Of a DNA stretch of 10,932 nucleotides, positions 1 through 10,932 are shown in pieces (within the stretch, counting starts at the first letter, position 1; every line of letters starts with the position of its first letter). This DNA comes from a virus (Duplodnaviria > Heunggongvirae > Uroviricota > Caudoviricetes). Both the position numbers and the translations under genes were made by a program. The stretch is from IMG/VR virus record IMGVR_UViG_2671180814_000008. One strand, 5' to 3'. The notes under the pieces were generated by a model that was not told where the DNA came from, did not search any database, and was given only the letters and a program-made list of their open reading frames with translations.

Positions 1-366
1 CAATGCGGCCTTTTGTGATTCGGCCTGTTGTTGCTGTTCGTCAGCCGTATAAATCCGTTTAACCACAGCTCCGTCCTTAAACATCCACTTACCGGAATCA
101 TCAGCACGACGATTAGCTGTAATATCAGGAACCTCAACGACGCTATAACCTTCAGGGTTAAGCGTGGAGGCATCTTTGGTGATGGCGACAATAATATTAT
201 TTGCATCGTAAACAATCTTTATTGTGTCTGGCTGAAAGTTCTTCACTTCCTCATACCAGTTTTTTCCGTCCTCAGAGTAAAGCCAGATGACTCCGTGCTT
301 CTTTGTTAACTCATACTGCTCCACTGTTTTAGCATTACCTGCTTTTATGTTCTTTAAGTGCATCAT
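1..366 (-). CDS. tfa: Tail fibre assembly protein (Tfa chaperone family), N-terminal part; 3' end runs off the window start
   Basis: Minus-strand translation from ATG at 366-364 reads [57 protein letters not shown] with no stop before position 1. Clearly paralogous to the complete tfa at 1630-2163 ([42 protein letters not shown]). Start lies 1 nt after the TAA of the upstream tail-fibre cassette (TAA-T-ATG). Missing from the ORF track because it has no in-window stop. Confidence 0.8.
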
Positions 367-367
367 A

Positions 368-1396
368 TTAAATACTCGCCACATTATACCAAGTGCCATT
401 TATATACTTTTGCACTGGCCTGTAATGAACGCCTGCAATATTATCGGCAGAGTTTTTTCCGGTATCCTGTACGTTAATCCCCGTCAGTACATAGCCTGAC
501 GGGCACTGAAAATTCCATGTTTGCCAGTTGTTCACTCCATAATATTGCTGTGAACCAAGTCGAACATCTTTCACATATCTGGAATCAAAATTGCCATAGT
601 TGCCGGGAATAACTTGCGAGCCGCAAAGCCAGTTCCCGTTATTATCCATGTACGCCTGACCATCGGTGCCATTGGCTGTCCTTGAGTTATTAATCATGTA
701 GATGCCAAATTGCTTATTTCCCAGACCGCCAATCATAAATTTGCGGTCGGCATGGTCCTGACGGAGCAAAGCCTGAGCACCATCAGTGGATACCGCATTA
801 CGTCCCAAAATAACATTCTGGTCACGCATATGAATCCACATGCCGGTACTACTGTTAATTGCAAAACGGTTTGCAAATATATCCCCTGTAACATCAAGAC
901 CATGCCCCATGCTTATCCGGCCAGTTCTGAGATTAAGCGTAAAGGGGCGTAGTGGCCCTATATTACCATTTTCCCCTTCATTCTCTCGTGTAGGGATGAT
1001 ATGCAGGCATTCTTCAGAACGACGAAAAATGGCACCAAAAGATGAATTAAATATCCTCAGTGCATTGACTGTCGATATTTTCACTTCACTGCTGAAAAGG
1101 GCTTCAACAAGAACAGACAAAGCATTCCATTTAAGATTCATCAGGTCTTTAGGCCGGGTGCCAATGATGCGGTGTCTCCATTTGAAATATTCATTGCCGT
1201 TGTTGCCTGTTTCAAACCACATGTAGGAATCGGTGTCTGCATCCGAATTATTTTTAAACCCAATCTTTGCCCAGTCAGTATTTCGAATCCAGGCAAGGAT
1301 TGAGTCGTTTTCAAAAGTAAGTCCACCGGACAACGTATCGCCATTTTTTTGCACGGCGTTACCAGCCTTGTTTACCGTTTCCTGTAAACCGAGGTT
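368..1396 (-). CDS. Phage tail fibre C-terminal variable (receptor-binding) cassette 1, silent: no own N-terminal constant part or RBS
   Basis: ORF track gives 368-1354 from a GTG. The same frame stays open upstream to 1396 and is closed only by a TAA inside the crossover site (1397-1399). Reads [12 protein letters not shown]..., the junction peptide expected of a Mu S-type fibre crossing a gix site. Glycine/asparagine-rich fibre-like composition; C-terminal motifs [15 protein letters not shown] and INGTWYNV are shared with cassette 2. Followed immediately by a tfa gene. Confidence 0.7.
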
Positions 1397-1404
1397 TTAG
1401 ATAA
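1379..1404. other. gix/hix-like 26-bp invertase crossover site, copy 1 (TTCCTGTAAACCGAGGTTTTAGATAA)
   Basis: Two 12-bp imperfect inverted half-sites around a central GA. One mismatch from the phage Mu gixL sequence as I recall it (TTCCTGTAAACCGAGGTTTTGGATAA). Sits exactly at the 5' end of tail-fibre cassette 1. Confidence 0.7.
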
Positions 1405-1576
1405 TGGCCGTTTCCGGCCTGCATGGCATGATTTGCGCTTTTGGACGGGAGATTCAGCGTGCTGATTGGCTATGTAAGGGTATCAACAAATGACCAGAAT
1501 ACAGACCTGCAACGAAACGCTCTTGTTTGTGCAGGATGTGAACAAATATTTGAAGATAAATTAAGCGGAACAAGGA
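1385..1576 (+). repeat. About 190-bp direct repeat, copy 1 (crossover site right part + invertase leader + first ~39 invertase codons)
   Basis: 1385-1568 matches 3081-3264 with 2 mismatches (1409 C vs G, 1415 C vs T) by manual alignment. Copy 1 continues the invertase reading frame (LSGTR) to about 1576 before diverging. Confidence 0.85.
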
Positions 1577-1608
1577 NGAATGGCCACAAAAGCCTGAATA
1601 AAAATTAA
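1459..1608 (+). pseudogene. Truncated serine DNA invertase N-terminal fragment (about 39 invertase codons then unrelated tail, stop at 1606-1608)
   Basis: GTG at 1459 preceded by GGGAG. Encodes [39 protein letters not shown], identical to the start of the invertase at 3155, then X-NGHKSLNKN-stop. Contains the ambiguous base at 1577. Confidence 0.55.
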
Positions 1609-1626
1609 GGCCCGATAGCGGGCCTT
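1597..1626 (-). terminator. Putative rho-independent terminator downstream of tfa (1630-2163)
   Basis: Perfect 8-bp stem AAGGCCCG (1607-1614) / CGGGCCTT (1619-1626) with 4-nt loop. On the minus strand it is followed by AATTTTTATT, starting 3 nt after the tfa stop codon. Confidence 0.5.
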
Positions 1627-1629
1627 CTC

Positions 1630-2163
1630 TCATTCTGGTTGTTCGGGAAACGTTACTGGCAGGCTGGAGGTGTCTGTGGATTCAACCTTCTGCGCATAGA
1701 GCATCCACTCGGTTAATTTTTGTTTATTCTCATCGGAAATGATGCCCAGCTGTAGCTGAGAGTCCCACAGCTGGGTTTTATCCCTGACGAGCTGCAGCAG
1801 GCTCTGCTTTTCATTTTCCGCTTGTTGCCTTTGCTCTTCCTCGGTATAAGTTCGCTTTATCACCGCACCATCTTTGAACATCCAGTTGCCCGAAATATCA
1901 GCCCGGCGATTTGCTGTAATATCAGGCAACTCAACGACACTTAAACCTTCTGGATTAATTGCTGATACATCCTTGTCTATAGCAATAATTATTCCCTCAA
2001 CTGTGTAAGCCAGTTTTATTGTATCCTCCTGAAAGTTTTTTAATTCCTCATGCCAATTTTTTCCATCTTCGGACCATAACCAGATAACATCAAAATTCTT
2101 TGTTAGCTGGTATTGTTCAACGGTTTTTGGATTACCTGCGACAATGTTTTTTAAATGCTGCAT
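1630..2163 (-). CDS. tfa: Tail fibre assembly protein (Tfa chaperone family), complete, 177 aa
   Basis: ORF-track protein [37 protein letters not shown]...[28 protein letters not shown]. The C-terminal W..Y..V.....S.P...P pattern is typical of Caudovirales tail-fibre chaperones. ATG at 2163 lies 2 nt after the TAA ending the cassette 2 reading frame. Confidence 0.85.
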
Positions 2164-2165
2164 GA

Positions 2166-2315
2166 TTATACCTGCGATACGTTATACCATGTTCCGTTAA
2201 TTAACTTTTGTATTGGTCTGAATACTGCCGGATCATCACCATCGACTTCACCGATAATACCAAGCCCCGTGATTACATGGCCTGATTTTTCATACATCAC
2301 GCCTTTCTTCATGGT
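2166..2315 (-). pseudogene. Detached C-terminal 49 codons of tail fibre cassette 2, downstream of an in-frame amber stop
   Basis: Same frame as 2316-3092. After TAG (2318-2316) the frame reads [52 protein letters not shown], which aligns with the C-terminus of cassette 1 (..[21 protein letters not shown]). Confidence 0.45.
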
Positions 2316-3092
2316 CTAAACAACTCGTGTGCCAAGTCTGACATCTCTCACATAGCGGGAATCAAAGTTACCGTAATCCGAGGGATTAACACGTCCCGTA
2401 ATATTTATGGTTTTATTACTTTGAATGCTTCCGGAGACAAAGCGCATAACATGGACGTTATTAGCATAAACATCCAGATTACCATCGCCTTTTTGTTTAA
2501 AGCCCGTGTCATTATCACCCAATACAATCGAATTACCGCCAAGAGCACTGGATGTTCCGATACCCAGTGCACCATTCAGTTGACCACCAGATAACGGCAG
2601 TGCACCAACATCTCCTGCTGAAGGTTTTCTGGTGGTGTAAAATTCGGACCAGTCGGCTTCAAAACCATAACCATCACGGGCTGAACGATAAAAAATACCG
2701 CCATTTTTATAATTAATCCGAAACTGAGCTGCAGGACAACTTCCTTCTCCCATATAAAAATGAATAATTAACGTTGATGCACCACTAATAGTTGCGTTAT
2801 AGGCTCCGCTACTCCAGTTCCATCCAACTGCTTTATCATTCGCAACGGTGCTTCCTGTTTTCCCTAAGGCAAACGCACCAACATGACTTGCTTTTAATGT
2901 GATATCGGAGGAACCATCAAAAGCCACATTGCTTATTTTCCTGGCAGTTTTTAATTTTGCAGCTGTAGAAGCATTGCCGGATAGTTCACCAGAAAGGCCA
3001 CCGCTGAATGTTTGTCGATTAGTCCAGGTATTCGCTGTACTGAGTAACGGTATTTTCTCCCCGCTTGTGCCGAGTTCTCGTAAACCGAGGTT
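2316..3092 (-). CDS. Phage tail fibre C-terminal variable cassette 2, silent; truncated by an in-frame TAG
   Basis: ORF track 2316-2927 (GTG start). The frame is open upstream to 3092 and is closed by a TAA inside the crossover site (3093-3095). Reads NLGLRELGTSGEKIPLLSTANTWTNRQTFSGG...NVAFDGSSDITL..., ending ..[23 protein letters not shown]. Confidence 0.7.
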   Translation of the reverse strand, partial: NLGLRELGTSGEKIPLLSTANTWTNRQTFSGGLSGELSGNASTAAKLKTARKISNVAFDGSSDITLKASHVGAFALGKTGSTVANDKAVGWNWSSGAYNATISGASTLIIHFYMGEGSCPAAQFRINYKNGGIFYRSARDGYGFEADWSEFYTTRKPSAGDVGALPLSGGQLNGALGIGTSSALGGNSIVLGDNDTGFKQKGDGNLDVYANNVHVMRFVSGSIQSNKTINITGRVNPSDYGNFDSRYVRDVRLGTRVV

Positions 3093-3100
3093 TTAGATAA
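3075..3100. other. gix/hix-like 26-bp invertase crossover site, copy 2 (TTCTCGTAAACCGAGGTTTTAGATAA), adjacent to the invertase gene
   Basis: Same architecture as copy 1. The cassette-proximal half differs (TTCTCG vs TTCCTG); the invertase-proximal half is identical. Lies 55 bp upstream of the invertase start. Confidence 0.75.
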
Positions 3101-3264
3101 TGGCGGTTTCTGGCCTGCATGGCATGATTTGCGCTTTTGGACGGGAGATTCAGCGTGCTGATTGGCTATGTAAGGGTATCAACAAATGACCAGAATACAG
3201 ACCTGCAACGAAACGCTCTTGTTTGTGCAGGATGTGAACAAATATTTGAAGATAAATTAAGCGG
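3081..3264 (+). repeat. About 190-bp direct repeat, copy 2 (ends at the assembly gap)
   Basis: Near-identical to 1385-1568. The run of N begins at 3265, exactly where the sequenced part of this copy stops. Confidence 0.85.
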
Positions 3265-3873
3265 NNNNNNNNNNNNNNNNNNNNNNNNNNNNNNNNNNNN
3301 NNNNNNNNNNNNNNNNNNNNNNNNNNNNNNNNNNNNNNNNNNNNNNNNNNNNNNNNNNNNNNNNNNNNNNNNNNNNNNNNNNNNNNNNNNNNNNNNNNNN
3401 NNNNNNNNNNNNNNNNNNNNNNNNNNNNNNNNNNNNNNNNNNNAAAAGGTGACACGCTGGTTGTCTGGAAACTGGATCGCCTCGGGCGAAGCATGAAACA
3501 TCTGATTTCTCTCGTCGGGGAACTACGGGAGCGAGGAATTAATTTTCGCAGTCTGACCGACAGCATAGATACATCTTCTCCAATGGGGCGTTTTTTCTTC
3601 CACGTGATGGGTGCCCTGGCTGAAATGGAACGTGAATTAATTGTTGAACGTACACTGGCCGGACTGGCGGCAGCACGCGCACGGGGGCGCACAGGCGGAC
3701 GTCGACCGAAGCTGACAAAAGAACAGCATGAGCAAATAGCAAGGCTGATCAAAAACGGGCACGACAGAAAACAACTGGCAATAATTTACGGCATTGGTAT
3801 ATCGACGATTTATCGTTACCACCCCGCAGGAGAATCAATCGGAACAATAGAGAAGAGTCAGGAAACAAAATAA
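3155..3873 (+). CDS. Site-specific serine DNA invertase (Gin/Pin/Hin/Cin family), interrupted by an assembly gap
   Basis: GTG at 3155 with GGGAG 7 nt upstream. N-terminus [37 protein letters not shown] contains the family's catalytic-serine motif (YVRVS). After the gap: [70 protein letters not shown]...[19 protein letters not shown], including a Hin-like C-terminal helix-turn-helix; stop TAA 3871-3873. The gap falls where about 10-15 codons are expected to be missing. Confidence 0.9.
3265..3443. other. Assembly gap (179 N)
   Basis: Run of N in the sequence, inside the invertase coding region. Confidence 1.
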
Positions 3874-3900
3874 CCGCTAATCTGACCATTAGCGGTTTTT
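3874..3900. terminator. Bidirectional rho-independent terminator between convergent invertase and gpU-like genes
   Basis: Perfect 8-bp stem CCGCTAAT (3874-3881) / ATTAGCGG (3888-3895) with loop CTGACC, followed by TTTTT on the plus strand and by a T-rich run (TTATTTTGTTT) on the minus strand. Lies between the invertase stop (3873) and the gpU stop (3909). Confidence 0.55.
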
Positions 3901-3908
3901 GTGTTAAA

Positions 3909-4403
3909 TCAGAACAACCCTTTAACTGAACTGGCCGCGCTGTTAAGGGATGATGTTACCTTATCTTTGAAGCCGGACAGCATATCGCTGAACGATGAGG
4001 ATTGCAGGCGCTCCCGCAAATCCTCATCACAGCGTTCAAGAGTCAGTGAAAATTCTATCTTTTTCGCCTTACCGTAGCGATCAAACTCGGAGCGGGTCGT
4101 ATTCGTTTCGGTCAGGACATACATGCCGTAAATCTGCCCGACGCCATCAATCAGAGGCCAGGGTCGTCCTGTATACGCCTGCGTGGTCAGCAGCGACAGC
4201 GACACTTCGCCACCTGTAATTTCAGGATAAAGCACACCAGAAAGAACGATGCGCTCATCACCTGCACCGATATACTGCCAGCTTGCCGAACGGTTAACGC
4301 GTTCATTTTTCACATGCCGCCAGCTTTTGTTTTGCTGTAACTGCTGATGCGGCAATGTACGCAGCTCAAAAACAAACATGCCGTAGATCATCATCATGGC
4401 CAT
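3909..4403 (-). CDS. U: P2 gpU-like tail protein, 164 aa
   Basis: ORF-track protein MAMMMIYGMFVFELRTLPHQQLQQNKSWRH...VLYPEITGG. Immediately downstream of the tape-measure gene, as in P2-type tail operons. ATG at 4403 follows the T stop (4410-4412) with GAGGAG overlapping that stop. Confidence 0.75.
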   Translation of the reverse strand: MAMMMIYGMFVFELRTLPHQQLQQNKSWRHVKNERVNRSASWQYIGAGDERIVLSGVLYPEITGGEVSLSLLTTQAYTGRPWPLIDGVGQIYGMYVLTETNTTRSEFDRYGKAKKIEFSLTLERCDEDLRERLQSSSFSDMLSGFKDKVTSSLNSAASSVKGLF

Positions 4404-4409
4404 GACTCC

Positions 4410-7253
4410 TCAATCTTTATCGTAAAAACTGCCACGCCCGGCACGGGCGCGCCGTTCCATTTCTGCCCTGACCATTTCACCGACCAGTTTCGCCAGTTCG
4501 CGGGGATTCTGCGTAACAACGTTATGCAGATGAACATGAATTTCACCACCAAATCCGGAGGCAACAGGCTCCCGGTTACGGGAAGTTACAGGAACTGATG
4601 CCACTGGAGAGCGTATGGCCTCCGCCACCGGGCGGGAGCTGGCCGCAACAACAGGGACCAGCGCCGGAGGCAGCGGAGCCGGGACCACGGGTGTGATATT
4701 AATTGCGGGGGCAGGCTTACTGACCTGCGCAATCTTCCGCTCCTGCCACTCCCCACGAACAGCAAGTGCGCGGGGCAGGTTCTTAAAGACAATATCGCCG
4801 GGGCCAATGCGTTTTTTCGTCTCATCAACCAGCTTACCTGTGTTATCAGCAATTTTGCTGAGTCTGCGTAGCGTCCCGGTATTGCTGTCTGTGAGCGGTT
4901 TGTTGTCTTTGGGTTTATCACCTCCGGTGCCATTGCCATTTTCCACAGGCTTCGGCGGATTGATTTTCGCCAGGTCCCCCTGAAGCAAGGCAACCTTGTC
5001 CTGAAGAATGGCCGCACGCTGTGCGTCTTCGATTTTCTTGCGCGCCCTTTCCGCTTCATCCGGAAGGACGCCAAGTTTTTCAAGTATCCACGCCAGCGTA
5101 TCCAGTAGCATTTTTGCAGGTGTCAGAACAAGTTGTAACGCACCGCCAAGAACGTTACCGAATATCTCGCCAGCACTGGCACATTTATCCAGCGTTTCCT
5201 TGCTGGACTCCATCGGTGACAGCAGCGATTTAAACCAGTTAAAGACCTGAATAATCCCATCGCGCACGACATCAAAAACAGGGCCAAACCGTTCAAAGGT
5301 TTCGCGCAACGGGGTCAGCCTTTCCATAATCCCGCTGAACACCCCGGCAAAAAATGCCCTGATGGGATCCCAGTATTTCCAGATAAGAACGGCAGCTCCG
5401 GCAAGCGCAGCCACGATAAGACTAACCGGACTGAACAGCGCCCCGATAGCGCCACCAAGTAAAGAAACGGAACCCGTCACCATTCCCCATAATGCAGGCA
5501 GAACCCTGACAACATTCATTGATTCGGTCAGGAGAGAAAAACCGAGACGCAACGTAGCCAGCTTCCCGTGAAGCACCCCAATAACCAGAGACAACGAACC
5601 AACCGTTGCTGTTGTCGCCAGCAGTGCGCCTCCCGCTATCAGTAACTGGCGCGTCAGTGCCGGGTGGGCCTGCGCCAGCGCCGTCACCTTTGAGACAACC
5701 CGCGTGAGCCACTGCGTGACAGAACGCAGCGGACCGTCAACCAGATCACTGATGCGAATACGCAGACCTTCCCATGCACTGCCGAGTGATTTCAGGTTGC
5801 CATCAAGGTTATTGGCCATAACCTTTGCCGTGCGTTCTGCCTCACCGCGCGCGCCTTCAAGTTCTTTTCTCAGTTTGGCTAAGAAGCCGTCACCTGCCGC
5901 ATCAACGAGGCCCATAAATGATGTGAAAGCCTCTTCTCCGGCAATGTCCTTAAAGAACGATACCCGGTCAACCTCCCCGTATTTGCGGGTGGCTTTATAG
6001 AGATCGGCCAGCACATTCTCCATCGGGCGCATTTTGCCTTTGGCGTCAGCAACTGACACCCCCAGCTCTTTCAGTGCTTCTGCCGCTGCCTTTGGCGGTG
6101 ATGACAGATTGGCCAGGCTTTTACGCAACGCTGTACCTGCATCACTCCCCCTGATACCCATCTTCGCCAGCACGCCCGCCATCGCTGCGGCCTGCTCCAG
6201 CGATATTCCCAGCTTACCCGCCACCGGACCTGCATATTTCATGGTTTCGCCCAGTGCGCGAAGGTCAGTGTTGGTACGGGTAAACGCTGCGGTAAGTGTG
6301 TCACCGACCCGGTCCATCTGGTCAGCAGAGAGGCCGAACTGCGTCAGGATATTGGAACCAATATCCGCCGTCTCGCCGAGGTCCATACCGCCAGCCGTTG
6401 CCATGCTCAGCACGCCGGGAAGCGCAGCCTGAATGGCCTGCGGTGTGAAACCAGCCATTGCAAGAAATGCCTGTCCACTGGCGGCATCGCCTGCGGTGAA
6501 CTGCGTTTCAGAGCCAAGTTTTAACGCCTGCTCACGCAGCGCCTTAAACTGCGGGCTGTTTTTATCGATTCGCGTCAGTGCCTGAACACGGGACATCTCT
6601 TTCCCGAACCCGATAGCGGGCTGCAAAAAACGCCCGGCAGCATAGCCGCCCGCTGCCGCCGCACCTGTTGCCAGCGCACCACCTGTTTTCAGTTTTCCCG
6701 CTGTTTCCTGCGCGCGTGAATACCGCTCACGCGCCTGCGTTACACGCGCAAGCGCCCGCCGTTCGCGTTCAAGCTGGTTGTTGTATTGTCCGGTGCGTCT
6801 GATGGCCTGCTGGATGGTGTTATCGCTGCCTGTCAGGGAAATGCCGTGGCGTTTCAGCTCTCCGCCAAGTTCCCGCATTTTCTGAATTTCCCGTGTGCGC
6901 GATTCATTCAGGCGTTCAAGCCGGGTGCTTAACTGCTGCATCAGCTTTTGTTGTTTTTCGCTGAGCACTGTACCCGTGCGTTGTAACTGATTAAGGGCGT
7001 TAAGCTGGCGTCGTGCTTTCACGATGCCCGCATCCGCTTTACTGACAGCGTCACGGGCGCGCTCAAATGAACGCGCCTGACGCTCGAGATTTTTGATCGC
7101 CCCCTGCGTTCGCTGGATGGAGTCACCAAACTGCCCCATCAGGCGGCGGGCGTTTTCGGCAGGCCGGGTCAGCCTGTCAACGGCGCTGAAAGCGACCCGG
7201 ATATCAAGAGTCTTCATTGTCTGCATTCCCGCTGCGAAGTGCCGCCCGCTCAC
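4410..7253 (-). CDS. T: Phage tail tape measure protein (P2 gpT-like)
   Basis: 947-aa ORF. N-terminal half is rich in coiled-coil-like Q/R/E/L repeats, followed by long hydrophobic/glycine-rich segments (..LLIAGGALLATTATVGSLSLVIGVL..) and a proline-rich C-terminal region. Sits between E/E' and U. True start may be an internal ATG (7226 or 7217, MQTMKTL / MKTLDIRVAF) rather than 7253. Confidence 0.85.
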   Translation of the reverse strand: MSGRHFAAGMQTMKTLDIRVAFSAVDRLTRPAENARRLMGQFGDSIQRTQGAIKNLERQARSFERARDAVSKADAGIVKARRQLNALNQLQRTGTVLSEKQQKLMQQLSTRLERLNESRTREIQKMRELGGELKRHGISLTGSDNTIQQAIRRTGQYNNQLERERRALARVTQARERYSRAQETAGKLKTGGALATGAAAAGGYAAGRFLQPAIGFGKEMSRVQALTRIDKNSPQFKALREQALKLGSETQFTAGDAASGQAFLAMAGFTPQAIQAALPGVLSMATAGGMDLGETADIGSNILTQFGLSADQMDRVGDTLTAAFTRTNTDLRALGETMKYAGPVAGKLGISLEQAAAMAGVLAKMGIRGSDAGTALRKSLANLSSPPKAAAEALKELGVSVADAKGKMRPMENVLADLYKATRKYGEVDRVSFFKDIAGEEAFTSFMGLVDAAGDGFLAKLRKELEGARGEAERTAKVMANNLDGNLKSLGSAWEGLRIRISDLVDGPLRSVTQWLTRVVSKVTALAQAHPALTRQLLIAGGALLATTATVGSLSLVIGVLHGKLATLRLGFSLLTESMNVVRVLPALWGMVTGSVSLLGGAIGALFSPVSLIVAALAGAAVLIWKYWDPIRAFFAGVFSGIMERLTPLRETFERFGPVFDVVRDGIIQVFNWFKSLLSPMESSKETLDKCASAGEIFGNVLGGALQLVLTPAKMLLDTLAWILEKLGVLPDEAERARKKIEDAQRAAILQDKVALLQGDLAKINPPKPVENGNGTGGDKPKDNKPLTDSNTGTLRRLSKIADNTGKLVDETKKRIGPGDIVFKNLPRALAVRGEWQERKIAQVSKPAPAINITPVVPAPLPPALVPVVAASSRPVAEAIRSPVASVPVTSRNREPVASGFGGEIHVHLHNVVTQNPRELAKLVGEMVRAEMERRARAGRGSFYDKD

Positions 7254-7733
7254 GCCAGCTAACCACTTCGCCGGGCGTCATCATGAAGATTTCGGCGGGC
7301 GACCAGTTAAAAATGGCGGCAATATCCGCCACAAAGTCTTCTATGTGCTCAAAGCACACAACCGTGATCAGGCTTCCGTCGCCTGTTCGTTCTTCTCGCC
7401 AGAGTCCGCACCGCTCAAAAAATTTACGGCAACCACACATAACTGAATAAAGTCACGGGATGCCATTTTTTTGATCGTCACTTCATCCAGTCGCGGTGAT
7501 GTCACGCGTGACAGCAGCGTAAACATGGATTCCGCTTTCAAATTCAGCACATCAGACAGCGACAAATCTCGCAGAGATCCAGCCTGCTCAATAGCCCCGG
7601 TGATCTCCACATACGTGATTTTTTCGCCGCCTCGCTCAATTGGTTGGGTAAGTTTTACGCCACGCTCACTGGTTTCTTTCACAGTGTCAGCAACGACCGT
7701 GTTTTCGGTATCGATGTTTTTCGTCTCTTTCAT
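7204..7733 (-). CDS. E': Tail assembly chaperone E+E' fusion (P2 gpE' analogue), made by a -1 ribosomal frameshift at 7416-7422
   Basis: The E frame reads ..VVAVNFL..; the -1 frame after TTTTTTG continues FERCGLWREERTGDGSLITVVCFEHIEDF...MMTPGEVVSWRERAALRSGNADNEDS and stops at 7204-7206, overlapping the start of T. This matches the conserved E/E' (lambda G/GT-like) arrangement upstream of tape-measure genes. Confidence 0.6.
7368..7733 (-). CDS. E: Tail assembly chaperone (P2 gpE-like), 121 aa
   Basis: ORF-track protein MKETKNIDTENTVVADTVKE...; ATG at 7733 preceded by AAGGAG with a 7-nt spacer. Lies between the tube and tape-measure genes. Confidence 0.8.
   Translation of the reverse strand: MKETKNIDTENTVVADTVKETSERGVKLTQPIERGGEKITYVEITGAIEQAGSLRDLSLSDVLNLKAESMFTLLSRVTSPRLDEVTIKKMASRDFIQLCVVAVNFLSGADSGEKNEQATEA
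7416..7422 (-). other. Slippery heptamer T-TTT-TTG for the -1 programmed frameshift (E to E')
   Basis: Plus strand CAAAAAA at 7416-7422 is minus-strand TTTTTTG, in the E frame as AAT-TTT-TTG, 15 codons before the E stop. The -1 frame downstream is open for 72 codons. Confidence 0.6.
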
Positions 7734-7787
7734 CAGGAAACTCCTTTCAGTCAGAGGCGACGCACTGCGCCGCCTGCATATTACTTA

Positions 7788-8300
7788 TCAGCCAAGCCCG
7801 AGCGCGGAACGGATGCGATCGGGCACAATGTCCCTGCCGTCCTTCCGGTAAATGAAGTTCAGCAGGTCAATCTCCCACAACGGGCGATCGTTAACACTCA
7901 GCTTGTAGTAGGTGTTTTTAATGGCGTAAGTGTGTGATGTGGCTTCGCCCTGTTTGGCTTCCCCCATATCAATTTCCGTCACACGTCCGCGCATTTCGAC
8001 TTCATACAGGTCGCTTTCAGCGTCGGTGTAGTATTCACCCGCAAAACGCAGCAGCGTACCGTCAATCGTGCCGCCATACTTAAGGAACAGCTCACGAACT
8101 GCGCCCCCCATGACAAAGCTCGCATCAAGCGCGGAGTCATCCAGGCCGAGATCAATACTTACCGCTCCCATCATGCCACCACCCCGGTAGCTGTCGGTTT
8201 TGCGCGTCAGCTTAGGCAGAGTGACGGACGTCACCTTACCCACTTCGTTTTCACCATCCACAAACAGCGTAAAAAAGCGAAGATGTTTTGGTACAGCCAT
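7788..8300 (-). CDS. FII: Phage tail tube protein (P2 FII-like), 170 aa
   Basis: ORF-track protein MAVPKHLRFFTLFVDGENEVGKVTSVTLPKLTRKTDSYRGGGM..., recognised as P2 FII-type. Its ATG overlaps the sheath stop by 1 nt (ATGA); GGGAGG lies 7 nt upstream. Confidence 0.9.
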   Translation of the reverse strand: MAVPKHLRFFTLFVDGENEVGKVTSVTLPKLTRKTDSYRGGGMMGAVSIDLGLDDSALDASFVMGGAVRELFLKYGGTIDGTLLRFAGEYYTDAESDLYEVEMRGRVTEIDMGEAKQGEATSHTYAIKNTYYKLSVNDRPLWEIDLLNFIYRKDGRDIVPDRIRSALGLG

Positions 8301-9484
8301 CAGGCACCTCCCAGCACCGCAAATGCGGGACCAAAGAATTCATCAGTAAACGACTGGTAAAGCTCCATGTCTTCCAGCGGGGGAACAGGCGTATATTTGT
8401 AGCGAATACGCACGCGCCCCTGACGTAAATTCGTGGTGCCGTTATCCACCACGTCATACCAGCACGACGCCCCAATCAGTTTCCCGGCAGTAACCAGTGA
8501 ATCCAGTTTTGCCCTGATGGCACCGATAACATCCTTCACGTTCGCAGGCGTCAGTGGACTGTCGATGGTTTCAAACTGCGCTTCCGCAATTGAATCAGCC
8601 AGCACCTGTGCGGTTCGGGTATACACCTCAAAGATGTAGGCGTTCGTTTCCGGTGTGCGGTTGCCCCAGAAGCGGAACCCGTTGCGACGAATAATGGTCG
8701 TGATTTCTTTGTTGTTGAGGCTGTTGGCATCACTGTCTTCGGCCTGCAACGACCAGAACACATGCCTGGACATCCCCAGCACATTTTTAACCGGAACGTT
8801 GGACAGCGATTTGTGCCAGCCCTGCTCATGGTCAATGTACGCACGAAGGCCGCACGCATAGGCAGGCGCGGGGAACGTTTCGTTTTTGCCACTTTTCGGG
8901 TTGTAGGCGATGAAGTCCGGCCATAAGAGCATCACCTCACGTTCGTTGAATTTCTGGCGGTAGGTAATTGCCTCAGCCATCGTGTTACAGTCATGACATG
9001 AGGCATACACAAACGCGCGCAGTTTACCCGCAATCACGCACAGGGATTTTGTCACCGCCTCCGTGTCCAGCTCCGGCGCGGCCAGAATACGCGGACGGTA
9101 TCCGATGCTTTCATCCTGCTCTGCAACAAGCAGCGCATACATCCCCGTATAGCTGCCGTCAGATTCAGAACCACCGATAACCAGTTGATCCTGCGTTTTT
9201 CCGTCTTCTTCTTTGTGTTCAGCCACGCGAACGACGATCACCTTTGTGCTCACCTGGTCTGCGATGGCCTTAAGCGCACGATAAAGCGTCCCCGTTGTTC
9301 CGCATTTTCCCAGCACGTCATTGACGCGGGGCAGCAGTGTGGGCTTGTTCAGCGGGAACAGCTCCGCGTCCGCATCATCCGCCGTTGCCACGATACCGAT
9401 AACGCTGGAATCAACATCGTTAATCGCTGTTACCAGGTCGGTATTTTCCGTAACACGGGCACCATGAAAACGAGTTTCACTCAT
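8300..9484 (-). CDS. FI: Phage contractile tail sheath protein (P2 FI-like), 394 aa
   Basis: ORF-track protein MSETRFHGARVTEN...FPLNKP...WPDF...EQGWHKSLSNV...GFRFWGNRT...YTPVPPLE, recognised as P2 FI-type sheath. AAGGGG lies 8 nt upstream of ATG 9484. Confidence 0.9.
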   Translation of the reverse strand: MSETRFHGARVTENTDLVTAINDVDSSVIGIVATADDADAELFPLNKPTLLPRVNDVLGKCGTTGTLYRALKAIADQVSTKVIVVRVAEHKEEDGKTQDQLVIGGSESDGSYTGMYALLVAEQDESIGYRPRILAAPELDTEAVTKSLCVIAGKLRAFVYASCHDCNTMAEAITYRQKFNEREVMLLWPDFIAYNPKSGKNETFPAPAYACGLRAYIDHEQGWHKSLSNVPVKNVLGMSRHVFWSLQAEDSDANSLNNKEITTIIRRNGFRFWGNRTPETNAYIFEVYTRTAQVLADSIAEAQFETIDSPLTPANVKDVIGAIRAKLDSLVTAGKLIGASCWYDVVDNGTTNLRQGRVRIRYKYTPVPPLEDMELYQSFTDEFFGPAFAVLGGA

Positions 9485-9641
9485 AGCTTCAACCCCTTGT
9501 ATCCGTTAAATGATTCGGCAACAATCATCACCCACCACGCGCGTAATCTCACCCCTGCGCCATTCTCCCGCCACGGCGACAACAAAAAGCAGTAACCCCC
9601 TCCGCACGCACATGCGACCATGCCACACAGGGAGGGAGCAG
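9485..9641. promoter_or_regulatory. Divergent intergenic region, presumed to hold promoters for the sheath operon (leftward) and the gpD-like gene (rightward)
   Basis: 157 bp non-coding between divergent starts at 9484 and 9642. No clear promoter motif identified. Confidence 0.3.
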
Positions 9642-10751
9642 ATGACCGACACCACCATGCAATTGCTCAGTCAGGGCACAGACCCCGTGAAAATGCCGGA
9701 TTTTGATATTCTCGCGGAGGGTAAAACGCTGTCAGGCGTGGCAGAGCGCCTGATGAGCCTGTCACTGACCGACAACCGGGGATTTGAGGCGGACCAGCTC
9801 ACCATCACGCTGGATGATGCGGATGGTCAGTTGCAGCTACCGCCACGGGGCGCGCGCCTGACGGTTCTCATTGGCTGGAAGGGAGAACCGCTGACAGAAA
9901 AAGGCACTTACATTGTTGATGAAATCGCTCACGAAGGACCGCCGGACAGGCTGACTGTTTCAGCCAGAAGCGCAGATTTTCGGGCTGAATTTAACGTTAA
10001 ACGTGAGGTGTCCTGGCATGATGTGACCGTTGAGCGTGTGGTATCCGCCATCGCTCATCGGTATGGTCTGAAACCGCAAATCAGCGAAATGCTGATGGAT
10101 ATCGAAATCGACCACGCCGACCAGACCGAAGAAAGCGACATGTCCTTCCTTACGCGCATGGCGGAAATGCTGGGCGCAATCACCACGGTAAAAAGCGGTA
10201 ATCTGTTATTCATCATGCCCGGTGGTGGCGTGAACGCACAGGGCCAGCCGTTGCCCTCGTTCGCCATCACACGCAGCAGCGGCGATCGCCATCAGTTCCG
10301 CATTGCTGACCGCGAAGCGTATACGGGGGTACGCGCTTACTGGCTTGATCTTAATTACGGGAAAAAGAAAAAAGTCAGCGTGAAACGCCGCAAACCGTCA
10401 AAACCAAAAAAGGAGAAAAGCAGCAGCCGGGAAGGCGACTATATGGAAGGTGCGGAAGGCAACGTGTTTGTGTTACGCAAAACTTATCAGAACGAGCAGG
10501 CAGCAAGACGTGCAGCGGCGGCAAAGTGGCAGCAGCTACAACGCGGAGCCGCATCATTCTCCATCACACTGGCGCATGGACGTGCAGAACTCTACCCCGA
10601 AATGCATGGCACGGTAACAGGATTTAAAAGCGAGATTGATAATCAGGACTGGATTATTGCAAAAGCCGAGCACACCATTGATAACAGCGGCTTTACCACG
10701 CAGCTTGAGCTTGAGGCAAAAATCCCGGAATGGATAGCAGAAACAGAGTGA
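9642..10751 (+). CDS. D: P2 gpD-like tail protein (phage late control D / Phage_GPD family), about 370 aa
   Basis: The ORF-track frame is open from 9510, but ATG 9642 is preferred because GGAGGGAG sits 3 nt upstream. Protein MTDTTMQLLSQGT...LSLTDNRGFEADQLTITLDDADGQLQLPPRGARLTVLIGWKG... with a central lysine-rich linker (KKKKVSVKRRKPSKPKKEK), as in gpD-type proteins. Confidence 0.75.
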   Translation: MTDTTMQLLSQGTDPVKMPDFDILAEGKTLSGVAERLMSLSLTDNRGFEADQLTITLDDADGQLQLPPRGARLTVLIGWKGEPLTEKGTYIVDEIAHEGPPDRLTVSARSADFRAEFNVKREVSWHDVTVERVVSAIAHRYGLKPQISEMLMDIEIDHADQTEESDMSFLTRMAEMLGAITTVKSGNLLFIMPGGGVNAQGQPLPSFAITRSSGDRHQFRIADREAYTGVRAYWLDLNYGKKKKVSVKRRKPSKPKKEKSSSREGDYMEGAEGNVFVLRKTYQNEQAARRAAAAKWQQLQRGAASFSITLAHGRAELYPEMHGTVTGFKSEIDNQDWIIAKAEHTIDNSGFTTQLELEAKIPEWIAETE

Positions 10752-10932
10752 GCAACTTAAATGTATTAACTCAGAACGGATCAACACACTCACAACATAG
10801 AGTCAATATAGCTGCTCGCTTTGTTCCAGCAAGGATGCCTATTTCTAAGGAAAAACAGAGCAGAAACATATGGTGTTTTCCTACCTGACATCAGGGGTGG
10901 TAGACTGGCCCCCTGAATCTCCAGACAACCAG

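Follow-up and report, generated by a model that had tools for sequence, protein, structure and literature searches.

The window analysed here is the whole 10,932-nucleotide stretch of IMG/VR record IMGVR_UViG_2671180814_000008 (Caudoviricetes). Its left part carries, twice over, the invertase end of a Gin-type invertible tail-fibre segment. In each copy a 26-base-pair (bp) gix-like crossover site stands between the 5' end of a serine invertase gene on the plus strand and a C-terminal fibre cassette on the minus strand, and the half-site nearest the invertase holds a TAA in the reading frame of the cassette. Very probably, this stop reflects a base change that is typical of the lineage and tolerated in the half of a known Mu/P88-type inversion site that is never translated, and the tandem arrangement of the two sites is a scaffolding artefact. 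The sites and the elements next to them are listed below (nt, nucleotides).

368–1396, minus strand: fibre C-terminal cassette 1, whose 342 codons run from directly behind the TAA to the stop at 368–370
1379–1404, minus strand: crossover site copy 1, TTATCTAAAACC TC GGTTTACAGGAA, with inner half 1379–1390, core 1391–1392 and outer (invertase-side) half 1393–1404 (pattern search and translation)
1405–1458, plus strand: spacer of 54 nt from the site to the invertase start codon
1459–1576, plus strand: 5' fragment of the invertase gene, copy 1, 39 codons ending ...SGTR and cut at a scaffold join
1577: single N, an artificial contig join where invertase codon 39 meets the 3' end of a tail-fibre assembly (tfa) gene
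2166–3092, minus strand: fibre C-terminal cassette 2, with a P1/P7-like start NLGLRELGTSGEKIP and a Pfam gp37_C match
3075–3100, minus strand: crossover site copy 2, TTATCTAAAACC TC GGTTTACGAGAA, with inner half 3075–3086, core 3087–3088 and outer half 3089–3100 (pattern search and translation)
3155–3264, plus strand: 5' end of the invertase gene, copy 2, running into an N gap
3265–3443: 179-N scaffold gap, read directly from the sequence
3444–3873, plus strand: 3' part of the invertase gene, stop at 3871–3873, with Pfam Resolvase (E=5e-30) and HTH_7 (E=8e-14)

Crossover sites and the in-frame TAA

A pattern search built from Mu gix, which allowed C or T at base 6, found only two gix-like 26-mers in the window. 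Both lie on the minus strand with 0–2 mismatches to the pattern, and the chance expectation from shuffled sequence is none. Each has a 2-bp core with a 12-bp half on either side, the two halves being imperfectly symmetric, and on the minus strand the inner half begins GGTTTAC in both, after TTATCTAAAACC-TC. Translation of the minus strand bore out the original prediction that a TAA lies in the cassette frame at 1397–1399 and at 3093–3095, in each case one codon ahead of the codon that spans the core. Over site copy 2 the cassette frame reads TAII*NLGLRELGTSGEKIP... (asterisk, stop). The two stops are not independent events, because both are contained in a single 190-nt direct repeat (1379–1568 and 3075–3264, 98% identical). 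The same prediction treated the two 26-mers as both crossover sites; they are in fact direct repeats, each with the same invertase 5' end, and not partners. The constant part of the fibre gene is absent from the window, which holds no expression site.

The invertase is a small serine recombinase with a resolvase domain, a C-terminal helix-turn-helix and an N-terminal Ser9, a residue whose role in Gin has been described (PMC3575834). Its Resolvase and HTH_7 domains fall on residues encoded by 3445–3873, and the window fragment matches Mu Gin across its 39 encoded residues. The gene is interrupted by the scaffold gap in the window and is intact in a close relative, IMGVR_UViG_2693429557_000008 (L194; surveyed loci are cited by such numbers), to which the 3' part at 3444–3873 is 100% identical. 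The site lies 54 nt from the invertase in nearly all relatives, and the invertase promoter and 5' untranslated region are presumably located in 1405–1458. A consensus sigma-70 promoter scan of 1300–1700 returned no match, and none overlapping the site.

Outer half-sites among relatives

Gin- and Hin-type invertases exchange strands at the central 2 bp of their sites, and the annotation of the phage P7 record marks 2-bp crossover points. The outer half-sites never move, because exchange falls at these central 2 bp. The earlier claim that the half-site beside the invertase never ends up in the fibre gene is upheld, since it follows from core exchange by Gin and Hin together with the P7 annotation. 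In an intact system the constant fibre gene reads through the partner site into one cassette and its assembly gene. The partner site is inverted and about 3 kb away, and the second cassette and assembly gene lie head-on beside the invertase, silent for want of a promoter, a start and an N-terminal part. The invertase cuts both sites at the central 2 bp and rotates the segment, so that the inner half-sites move with the cassettes and the outer half-sites remain in place. Selection on the open reading frame (ORF) excludes T at base 6 on the fibre side. On the invertase side, where no translation of the half-site takes place, T is tolerated and forms the common allele in this lineage.

The prophage's own partner site is absent from the window, so the prediction that the expression site reads through was tested in relatives. 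We surveyed 194 loci from IMG/VR, collected by invertase protein and by site pattern. At bases 6–8 of the outer half, the invertase-side codon is TAA in 51 of 60 unique contexts, CAA in 5 and AAA in 4. On the fibre side, 43 unique contexts give GAA 30 times, CAA 9, GCA 3 and AAA once; all 43 read through, with 90 or more open codons upstream in every case, and TAA occurs in 0/43. Fisher's test on TAA by side in these unique contexts gives p = 2e-20, a value calculated over related, non-independent loci. The 46 distinct complete inverted pairs are spaced 2.7–4.1 kb apart (P88, L002, L150 and L163 among them) and divide, as invertase/fibre side, into TAA/GAA (33), TAA/CAA (7), CAA/CAA (3) and AAA/GAA (3). 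Across these complete systems, which include phages P88 and SfMu, the fibre half reads through in 46/46 and the invertase side carries TAA in 40/46. The predicted read-through of the expression site was thus found in every fibre-side context (43/43) and every pair (46/46), including P88 and L194. The read-through half suggested for it, TTATCCAAAACC, did not hold for the nearest relatives: P88-like phages have TTATCGAATACC (I-E-Y), and the TTATCCAAAACC form occurs in Mu-like phages.

The effect of base 6 can be read from the outer-half consensus, TTATC-N-AAAACC. Invariant A7-A8 fill codon positions 2-3 in the fibre frame, and base 6 alone therefore sets Gln, Glu, Lys or stop. Among 75 unique fragments, the invertase-side outer half varies only at bases 5 and 6, with base 6 on the cassette strand being T in 66, C in 5 and A in 4. 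All four bases turn up here in functional sites, implying that this base is not read by the recombinase. Given an unconstrained base 6, a stop is a 1-in-4 outcome per lineage, and we infer that T is neutral there. Cin/pin-type relatives with a TT core have invertase-side outer halves that have diverged much further (AAAACGAAAACG, GAGAGATAAACG, TTTTCTTAAACG and others), and one such lineage again has an in-frame TAA (AAGACTAAAACG). These drifted halves would fit relaxed constraint rather than design.

The TAA is neither necessary for the silence of the cassettes nor its cause, because Mu, L025 and L080 (CAA) and L031, L032 and L100 (AAA) lack it. The silent cassettes of these same six systems, without TAA, contradict the original prediction that the stop marks cassettes as silent; about 15% of relatives have no TAA on the invertase side. 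What keeps a cassette silent is the absence of a promoter, a start and the constant N-terminal part of the gene. What the TAA does indicate reliably, in this lineage, is the invertase end of the segment. Literature searches turned up no usable earlier mention of an outer-half stop codon or of a gin promoter that overlaps gix.

Inversion between TAA-bearing sites is visible among the relatives. L163 and L174 are 99.4–99.8% identical with a 2.95-kb segment flipped and breakpoints inside the two 26-mers, and both carry TTATCTAAAACC on the invertase side. The segment found in both orientations is thus that of a relative of the window contig 1578–3264 (see below), and not of the source strain itself. 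In complete genomes and in P88 the natural order is fibre constant part, site, cassette and tfa (plus strand), then tfa and cassette (minus), then site, then invertase (plus). The prophage type that matches 1578–3264 has an invertase pseudogene, in which TGG has become TGA near codon 61, followed by unrelated sequence (L174 1380–1560, minus strand; L163 5234–6400). The fibre segment of this pseudogene-bearing prophage is nevertheless the one present in both orientations (L163 vs L174), which suggests either that another resident Din-family invertase acts in trans or that the decay followed the last flip.

Scaffold joins and alternative readings

Judged from its sequence, the window is a scaffold of three contigs (1–1576, 1578–3264 and 3444–10932), most likely from two related prophages. 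L194 is 99.9% identical to window 1–1576 and 100% identical to 3444–10932, and links 1576 to 3444 by 43 nt of intact invertase with no insertion. The 179-N gap has a length out of phase with the invertase gene, from which about 43–48 nt are truly missing. Window 1578–3264 is 99.88% identical to another prophage type (L174, L160, L097 and L138). The draft L163, 100% identical to window 3444–8411, has the same pieces in another order with single-N joins. The contig breaks fall where the invertase alleles start to differ. Over the first ~110 nt of the invertase gene, Mu, SfMu and P88-like prophages do not differ by a single base, and the flanks diverge (window 1459–1568 and 3155–3264; 5093–5202 in the Mu reference, L003), although the invertase proteins are only about 85% identical overall to Mu Gin. 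Assemblies break at the invertase 5' end because this block is nucleotide-invariant among prophages, and the contig ends seen here would lie in this part, common to two related prophages. Kahmann et al. reportedly placed the Mu recombinational enhancer within the 5' coding part of gin in 1985, and the invariant block is consistent with a predicted recombinational enhancer at this position. The tandem arrangement of sites is an artefact. Each site is a genuine invertase-side site, and the adjoining cassette is silent in its own context.

We also considered whether the two copies are orientation states of one segment, and rejected this: contig 1578–3264, including its spacer allele, belongs to a distinct L174-type prophage, and L194 has 1–1576 and 3444–10932 contiguous without 1578–3264. 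Two other loci, L139 and L019, show an invertase 5' copy and an invertase-type flank at both segment ends (L019 544–569; L139 7598–7619 / 10286–10307), and the extra site of L019 is a hybrid (GCCG TTATCTAATACC) of fibre-side and invertase-side halves. Both look like consensus or assembly chimeras from mixed-orientation cultures.

Four other explanations were weighed. The TAA could have been selected as a translational barrier that keeps the silent cassette from yielding a fibre fragment truncated at its N-terminus, stopping ribosomes that start at a conserved in-frame ATG 10 codons upstream or that travel on read-through transcripts of the convergent tail operon. If so, the stop would be a safeguard, as a headless fibre fragment could sequester the assembly chaperone or act as a poison in fibre trimers. 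The ATG (ATG CCA TGC AGG CCG GAA ACG GCC ATT ATC TAA) is indeed conserved in all gix-type relatives, Mu, with CAA, has Mup52 annotated from it through gixR, the FI-to-U late operon of P88-like phages lies on the silent-cassette strand and is aimed at the cassette, and TAA is the majority allele on the invertase side. We nonetheless think a barrier improbable. Mu, L025, L080, L031, L032 and L100 have no stop in otherwise normal systems, no Shine-Dalgarno sequence is apparent before the upstream ATG, a hairpin terminator stands between gpU and the invertase, and SfMu-like phages carry TAA just as often despite having no convergent tail operon. A constraint on the opposite strand is about as improbable. 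In that case the A in GGTTTTAGATAAT would belong to the invertase promoter or contribute to an autoregulatory contact, and the stop a by-product. The fixed 54-nt distance to the invertase start in nearly all relatives, the well-conserved spacer and the -10-like hexamers GATAAT and TAGATA that can be read in the outer half are compatible with this. Against it, the consensus scan of 1300–1700 was empty, inspection by eye gave no suitable -35 partner, and G, A and T all occur at that plus-strand position in otherwise similar loci.

A real tandem, in which a duplicated site and a truncated invertase copy form a three-cassette, Min- or shufflon-like switch, has some precedent in that multi-cassette segments exist in this phage group and L001 has extra tfa genes and cassette remnants. 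Here, however, it is very unlikely. Both joints coincide with Ns (1577; 3265–3443), the first fuses invertase codon 39 to the last 8 tfa codons and the gap has a length that does not keep the phase of the gene; the insertion is missing from L194, whose right-hand part matches at 100% identity; L163 orders the same pieces differently, again with single Ns; and direct repeats would give deletion, not inversion. Least probable of all is that the cassettes are independent genes translated from internal GTG codons (e.g. 1354–1352). An ORF at 368–1354 is present in the window, and the Prokaryotic Genome Annotation Pipeline (PGAP) annotates the L002 equivalent as a stand-alone 'phage tail protein' from that GTG. 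The 14 codons from the site to the GTG are conserved as coding, however, and are read within the fibre in both Mu S and P88 gp39. The same cassette types are fused to long constant parts (388–680 codons) in other genomes, a single cassette occupies both positions when L163 is compared with L174, and no good ribosome-binding site precedes the GTG.

Several points weigh against our preferred reading of a tolerated base change and an artefactual tandem. The survey was seeded from one invertase and one DNA pattern, and its loci are related rather than phylogenetically independent. The partner site of this very prophage lies outside the window, and we infer it from L194, L163 and P88. The T majority (85% of unique invertase-side contexts) could reflect selection instead of drift with shared ancestry or recombination, and it is seen in both P88-like and SfMu-like invertase lineages. 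The two spacers differ at 1409/3105 and 1415/3111, and both alleles are natural in other genomes. Spacer alleles also vary between strains (L163 vs L174), which leaves some chance that the two copies are two states of one prophage.

Host prophage and known inversion systems

The remaining features of the window are those of a P88-like phage.

1–363, minus strand: tfa1, tail-fibre assembly gene, ATG at 363–361, running off the window start (Caudo_TAP, E=3e-14)
1578–1601, plus strand: 3' end of a tfa gene, its last 8 codons EWPQKPE* (GAATGGCCACAAAAGCCTGAATAA), converging on tfa2
1607–1626: terminator-like hairpin after tfa2 (terminator scan)
1630–2163, minus strand: tfa2, tail-fibre assembly gene (Pfam Caudo_TAP, E=5e-34)
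3864–3905: hairpin with 18-bp arms (inverted repeat), between the invertase stop at 3871–3873 and the gpU stop at 3909
3909–9484, minus strand: P2-type tail operon as a whole, in inverted orientation (Pfam and P88 identity)
3909–4403, minus strand: gpU (Pfam)
4410–7253, minus strand: tape measure (Pfam)
7368–7733, minus strand: gpE (Pfam)
7788–8300, minus strand: tube FII (Pfam)
8300–9484, minus strand: sheath FI (Pfam)
9510–10751, plus strand: gpD, after the tail operon

Cassette 1 has no start codon of its own at its 5' end, and its N-terminal motif NLGLQETVN.. occurs inside the fibre genes Mu S and P88 gp39; the neighbouring tfa1 is 95% identical to SfMu gp51. Cassette 2 has an in-frame TAG at 2316–2318 (minus strand), 50 codons before the natural stop at 2166–2168, and beyond it the frame stays open and homologous to the end of cassette 1. 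The position is CAG in L150, L088 and L149. The TAG is a real nonsense mutation common to a sublineage, because L174, L160, L097 and L138 have it too, and cassette 2, even if switched on, would give a truncated fibre. The tfa 3' end at 1578–1601 marks the centre of the invertible segment and matches the U/U' convergence of Mu (L003 3480–3562) and the equivalent point in many loci.

The P2-type U, T, E, FII and FI operon is inverted and converges on the invertase after the fibre genes, as in P88-like tails. Window 3444–10932 is 96.5% identical in DNA to Escherichia phage P88 over 98% of its length, many E. coli prophages also match, and the same gene order is found in P88, L001 and L002. In complete genomes and in P88, the baseplate genes are followed by fibre, tfa, tfa' and cassette' (minus strand), site and invertase, and then by U-T-E-FII-FI (minus) and by D and ogr (plus). 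By gene order and identity, the locus is the Mu G-segment design in a P88-like (Xuanwuvirus, Peduoviridae) P2-family prophage. The hairpin at 3864–3905 is likely the shared bidirectional terminator of the converging invertase and late tail operon.

The system, a P88-like P2-family prophage with a Gin-type invertible fibre segment, is a known one, and the switch is a textbook Mu/P1-type host-range inversion that adds little new biology. The same half-site pair is present in the deposited P88 and SfMu genomes, and we regard the TAA detail as already known because it follows directly from the known mechanism. Its practical value lies in annotation and in spotting mis-assemblies. Base 6 of the outer half is, in this lineage, a quick sequence-only indicator of the segment end, with T giving TAA on the invertase side and G or C a read-through codon on the fibre side, and it also tells whether a pipeline-called 'phage tail protein' ORF is a silent cassette. 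Draft lysogen assemblies are routinely mis-joined at fibre switches, because the nucleotide sequence of the invertase 5' end does not vary from one prophage to the next and both orientations are present in cultures. Tandem 'sites' bordered by Ns should not be taken for biology.

Among known systems, a multi-site Min- or shufflon-type switch was considered and set aside, as it needs at least three sites of mixed orientation; the window has two, in the same orientation and split by scaffold joins. The C segment of P1/P7 (cin, cixL/cixR) belongs to the same invertase family and 26-bp site family as the window. P7 S reads ..VIQYLGLRE across the site, in the same fibre frame, and cassette 2 of the window begins like P7 Sv/Sv' (LGLRELGTSGEKIP). 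P7 differs in that its core is TT, not TC, and cin points towards the segment. In P7 (L195, 6205–6227) the TAA of cin itself lies inside the outer half of cixL (CAATCCTAAACC TT GGTTTAAGAGAA). We rejected P1/P7 as a precedent for an outer-half stop, as this TAA is cin's own stop, shifted by one base from the Sv' frame.

The Mu G segment (gin, gixL/gixR, S/U, S'/U') has the same 26-bp site as the window but for one base. It also shares the TC core on the cassette strand, the fibre frame over the site, the convergent cassette and tfa, the 54-nt distance from site to invertase and about 85% invertase protein identity. In the Mu reference (NC_000929, L003), gixL (1955–1980, in S) and gixR (5013–5038, beside gin) are both TTATCCAAAACCTCGGTTTACAGGAA. 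The S coding sequence (CDS; 1459–2973) reads TT-ATC-CAA-AAC-CTC-GGT-TTA-CAG-GAA across gixL, in agreement with the frame originally proposed for Mu. Unlike the window, Mu has TTATCCAAAACC at both gix sites, so that the gin-side half reads CAA with no stop and the frame is open for 103 codons upstream of the site; Mu is also a transposable myovirus, whereas the window phage is P2-type. RefSeq Mu lists Mup52, a GeneMark ORF on the silent S' cassette (L003 4068–5054), from an ATG 16 nt outside gixR, where the frame is open because of the CAA. PGAP calls the equivalent E. coli cassettes from the internal GTG (L002 9369–10331). Mup52 and the stand-alone PGAP CDSs are probably annotation artefacts.

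Shigella phage SfMu (L004) has a gin-side site TTATCTAAAACC with the same in-frame TAA as the window, and its adjoining cassette and tfa are 95% identical to window 1–1576. It differs from the window in being a Mu-like phage with a fibre-side site of TTATCCAAAACG. Its two repeats (3303–3328, 6378–6403) differ twice in the 26-mer, at base 6 (C or T) and at base 12 (G or C); the published description of SfMu gives one 1-bp difference, next to the core (PMC4406740). P88 (Xuanwuvirus P88, Peduoviridae) and its E. coli prophage relatives share 96.5% DNA identity with the window over the tail operon and invertase. P88 is, unlike the window, a clean contiguous genome with one segment, and carries different cassette sequences, the usual situation in this mosaic region. 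Its fibre-side site is TTATCGAATACC TC GGTTTACAGGAA, read ..VIEYLGLQE inside gp39, and its invertase-side site is TTATCTAAAACC, read ..SETAII*NLGLQE, the same as in the window.

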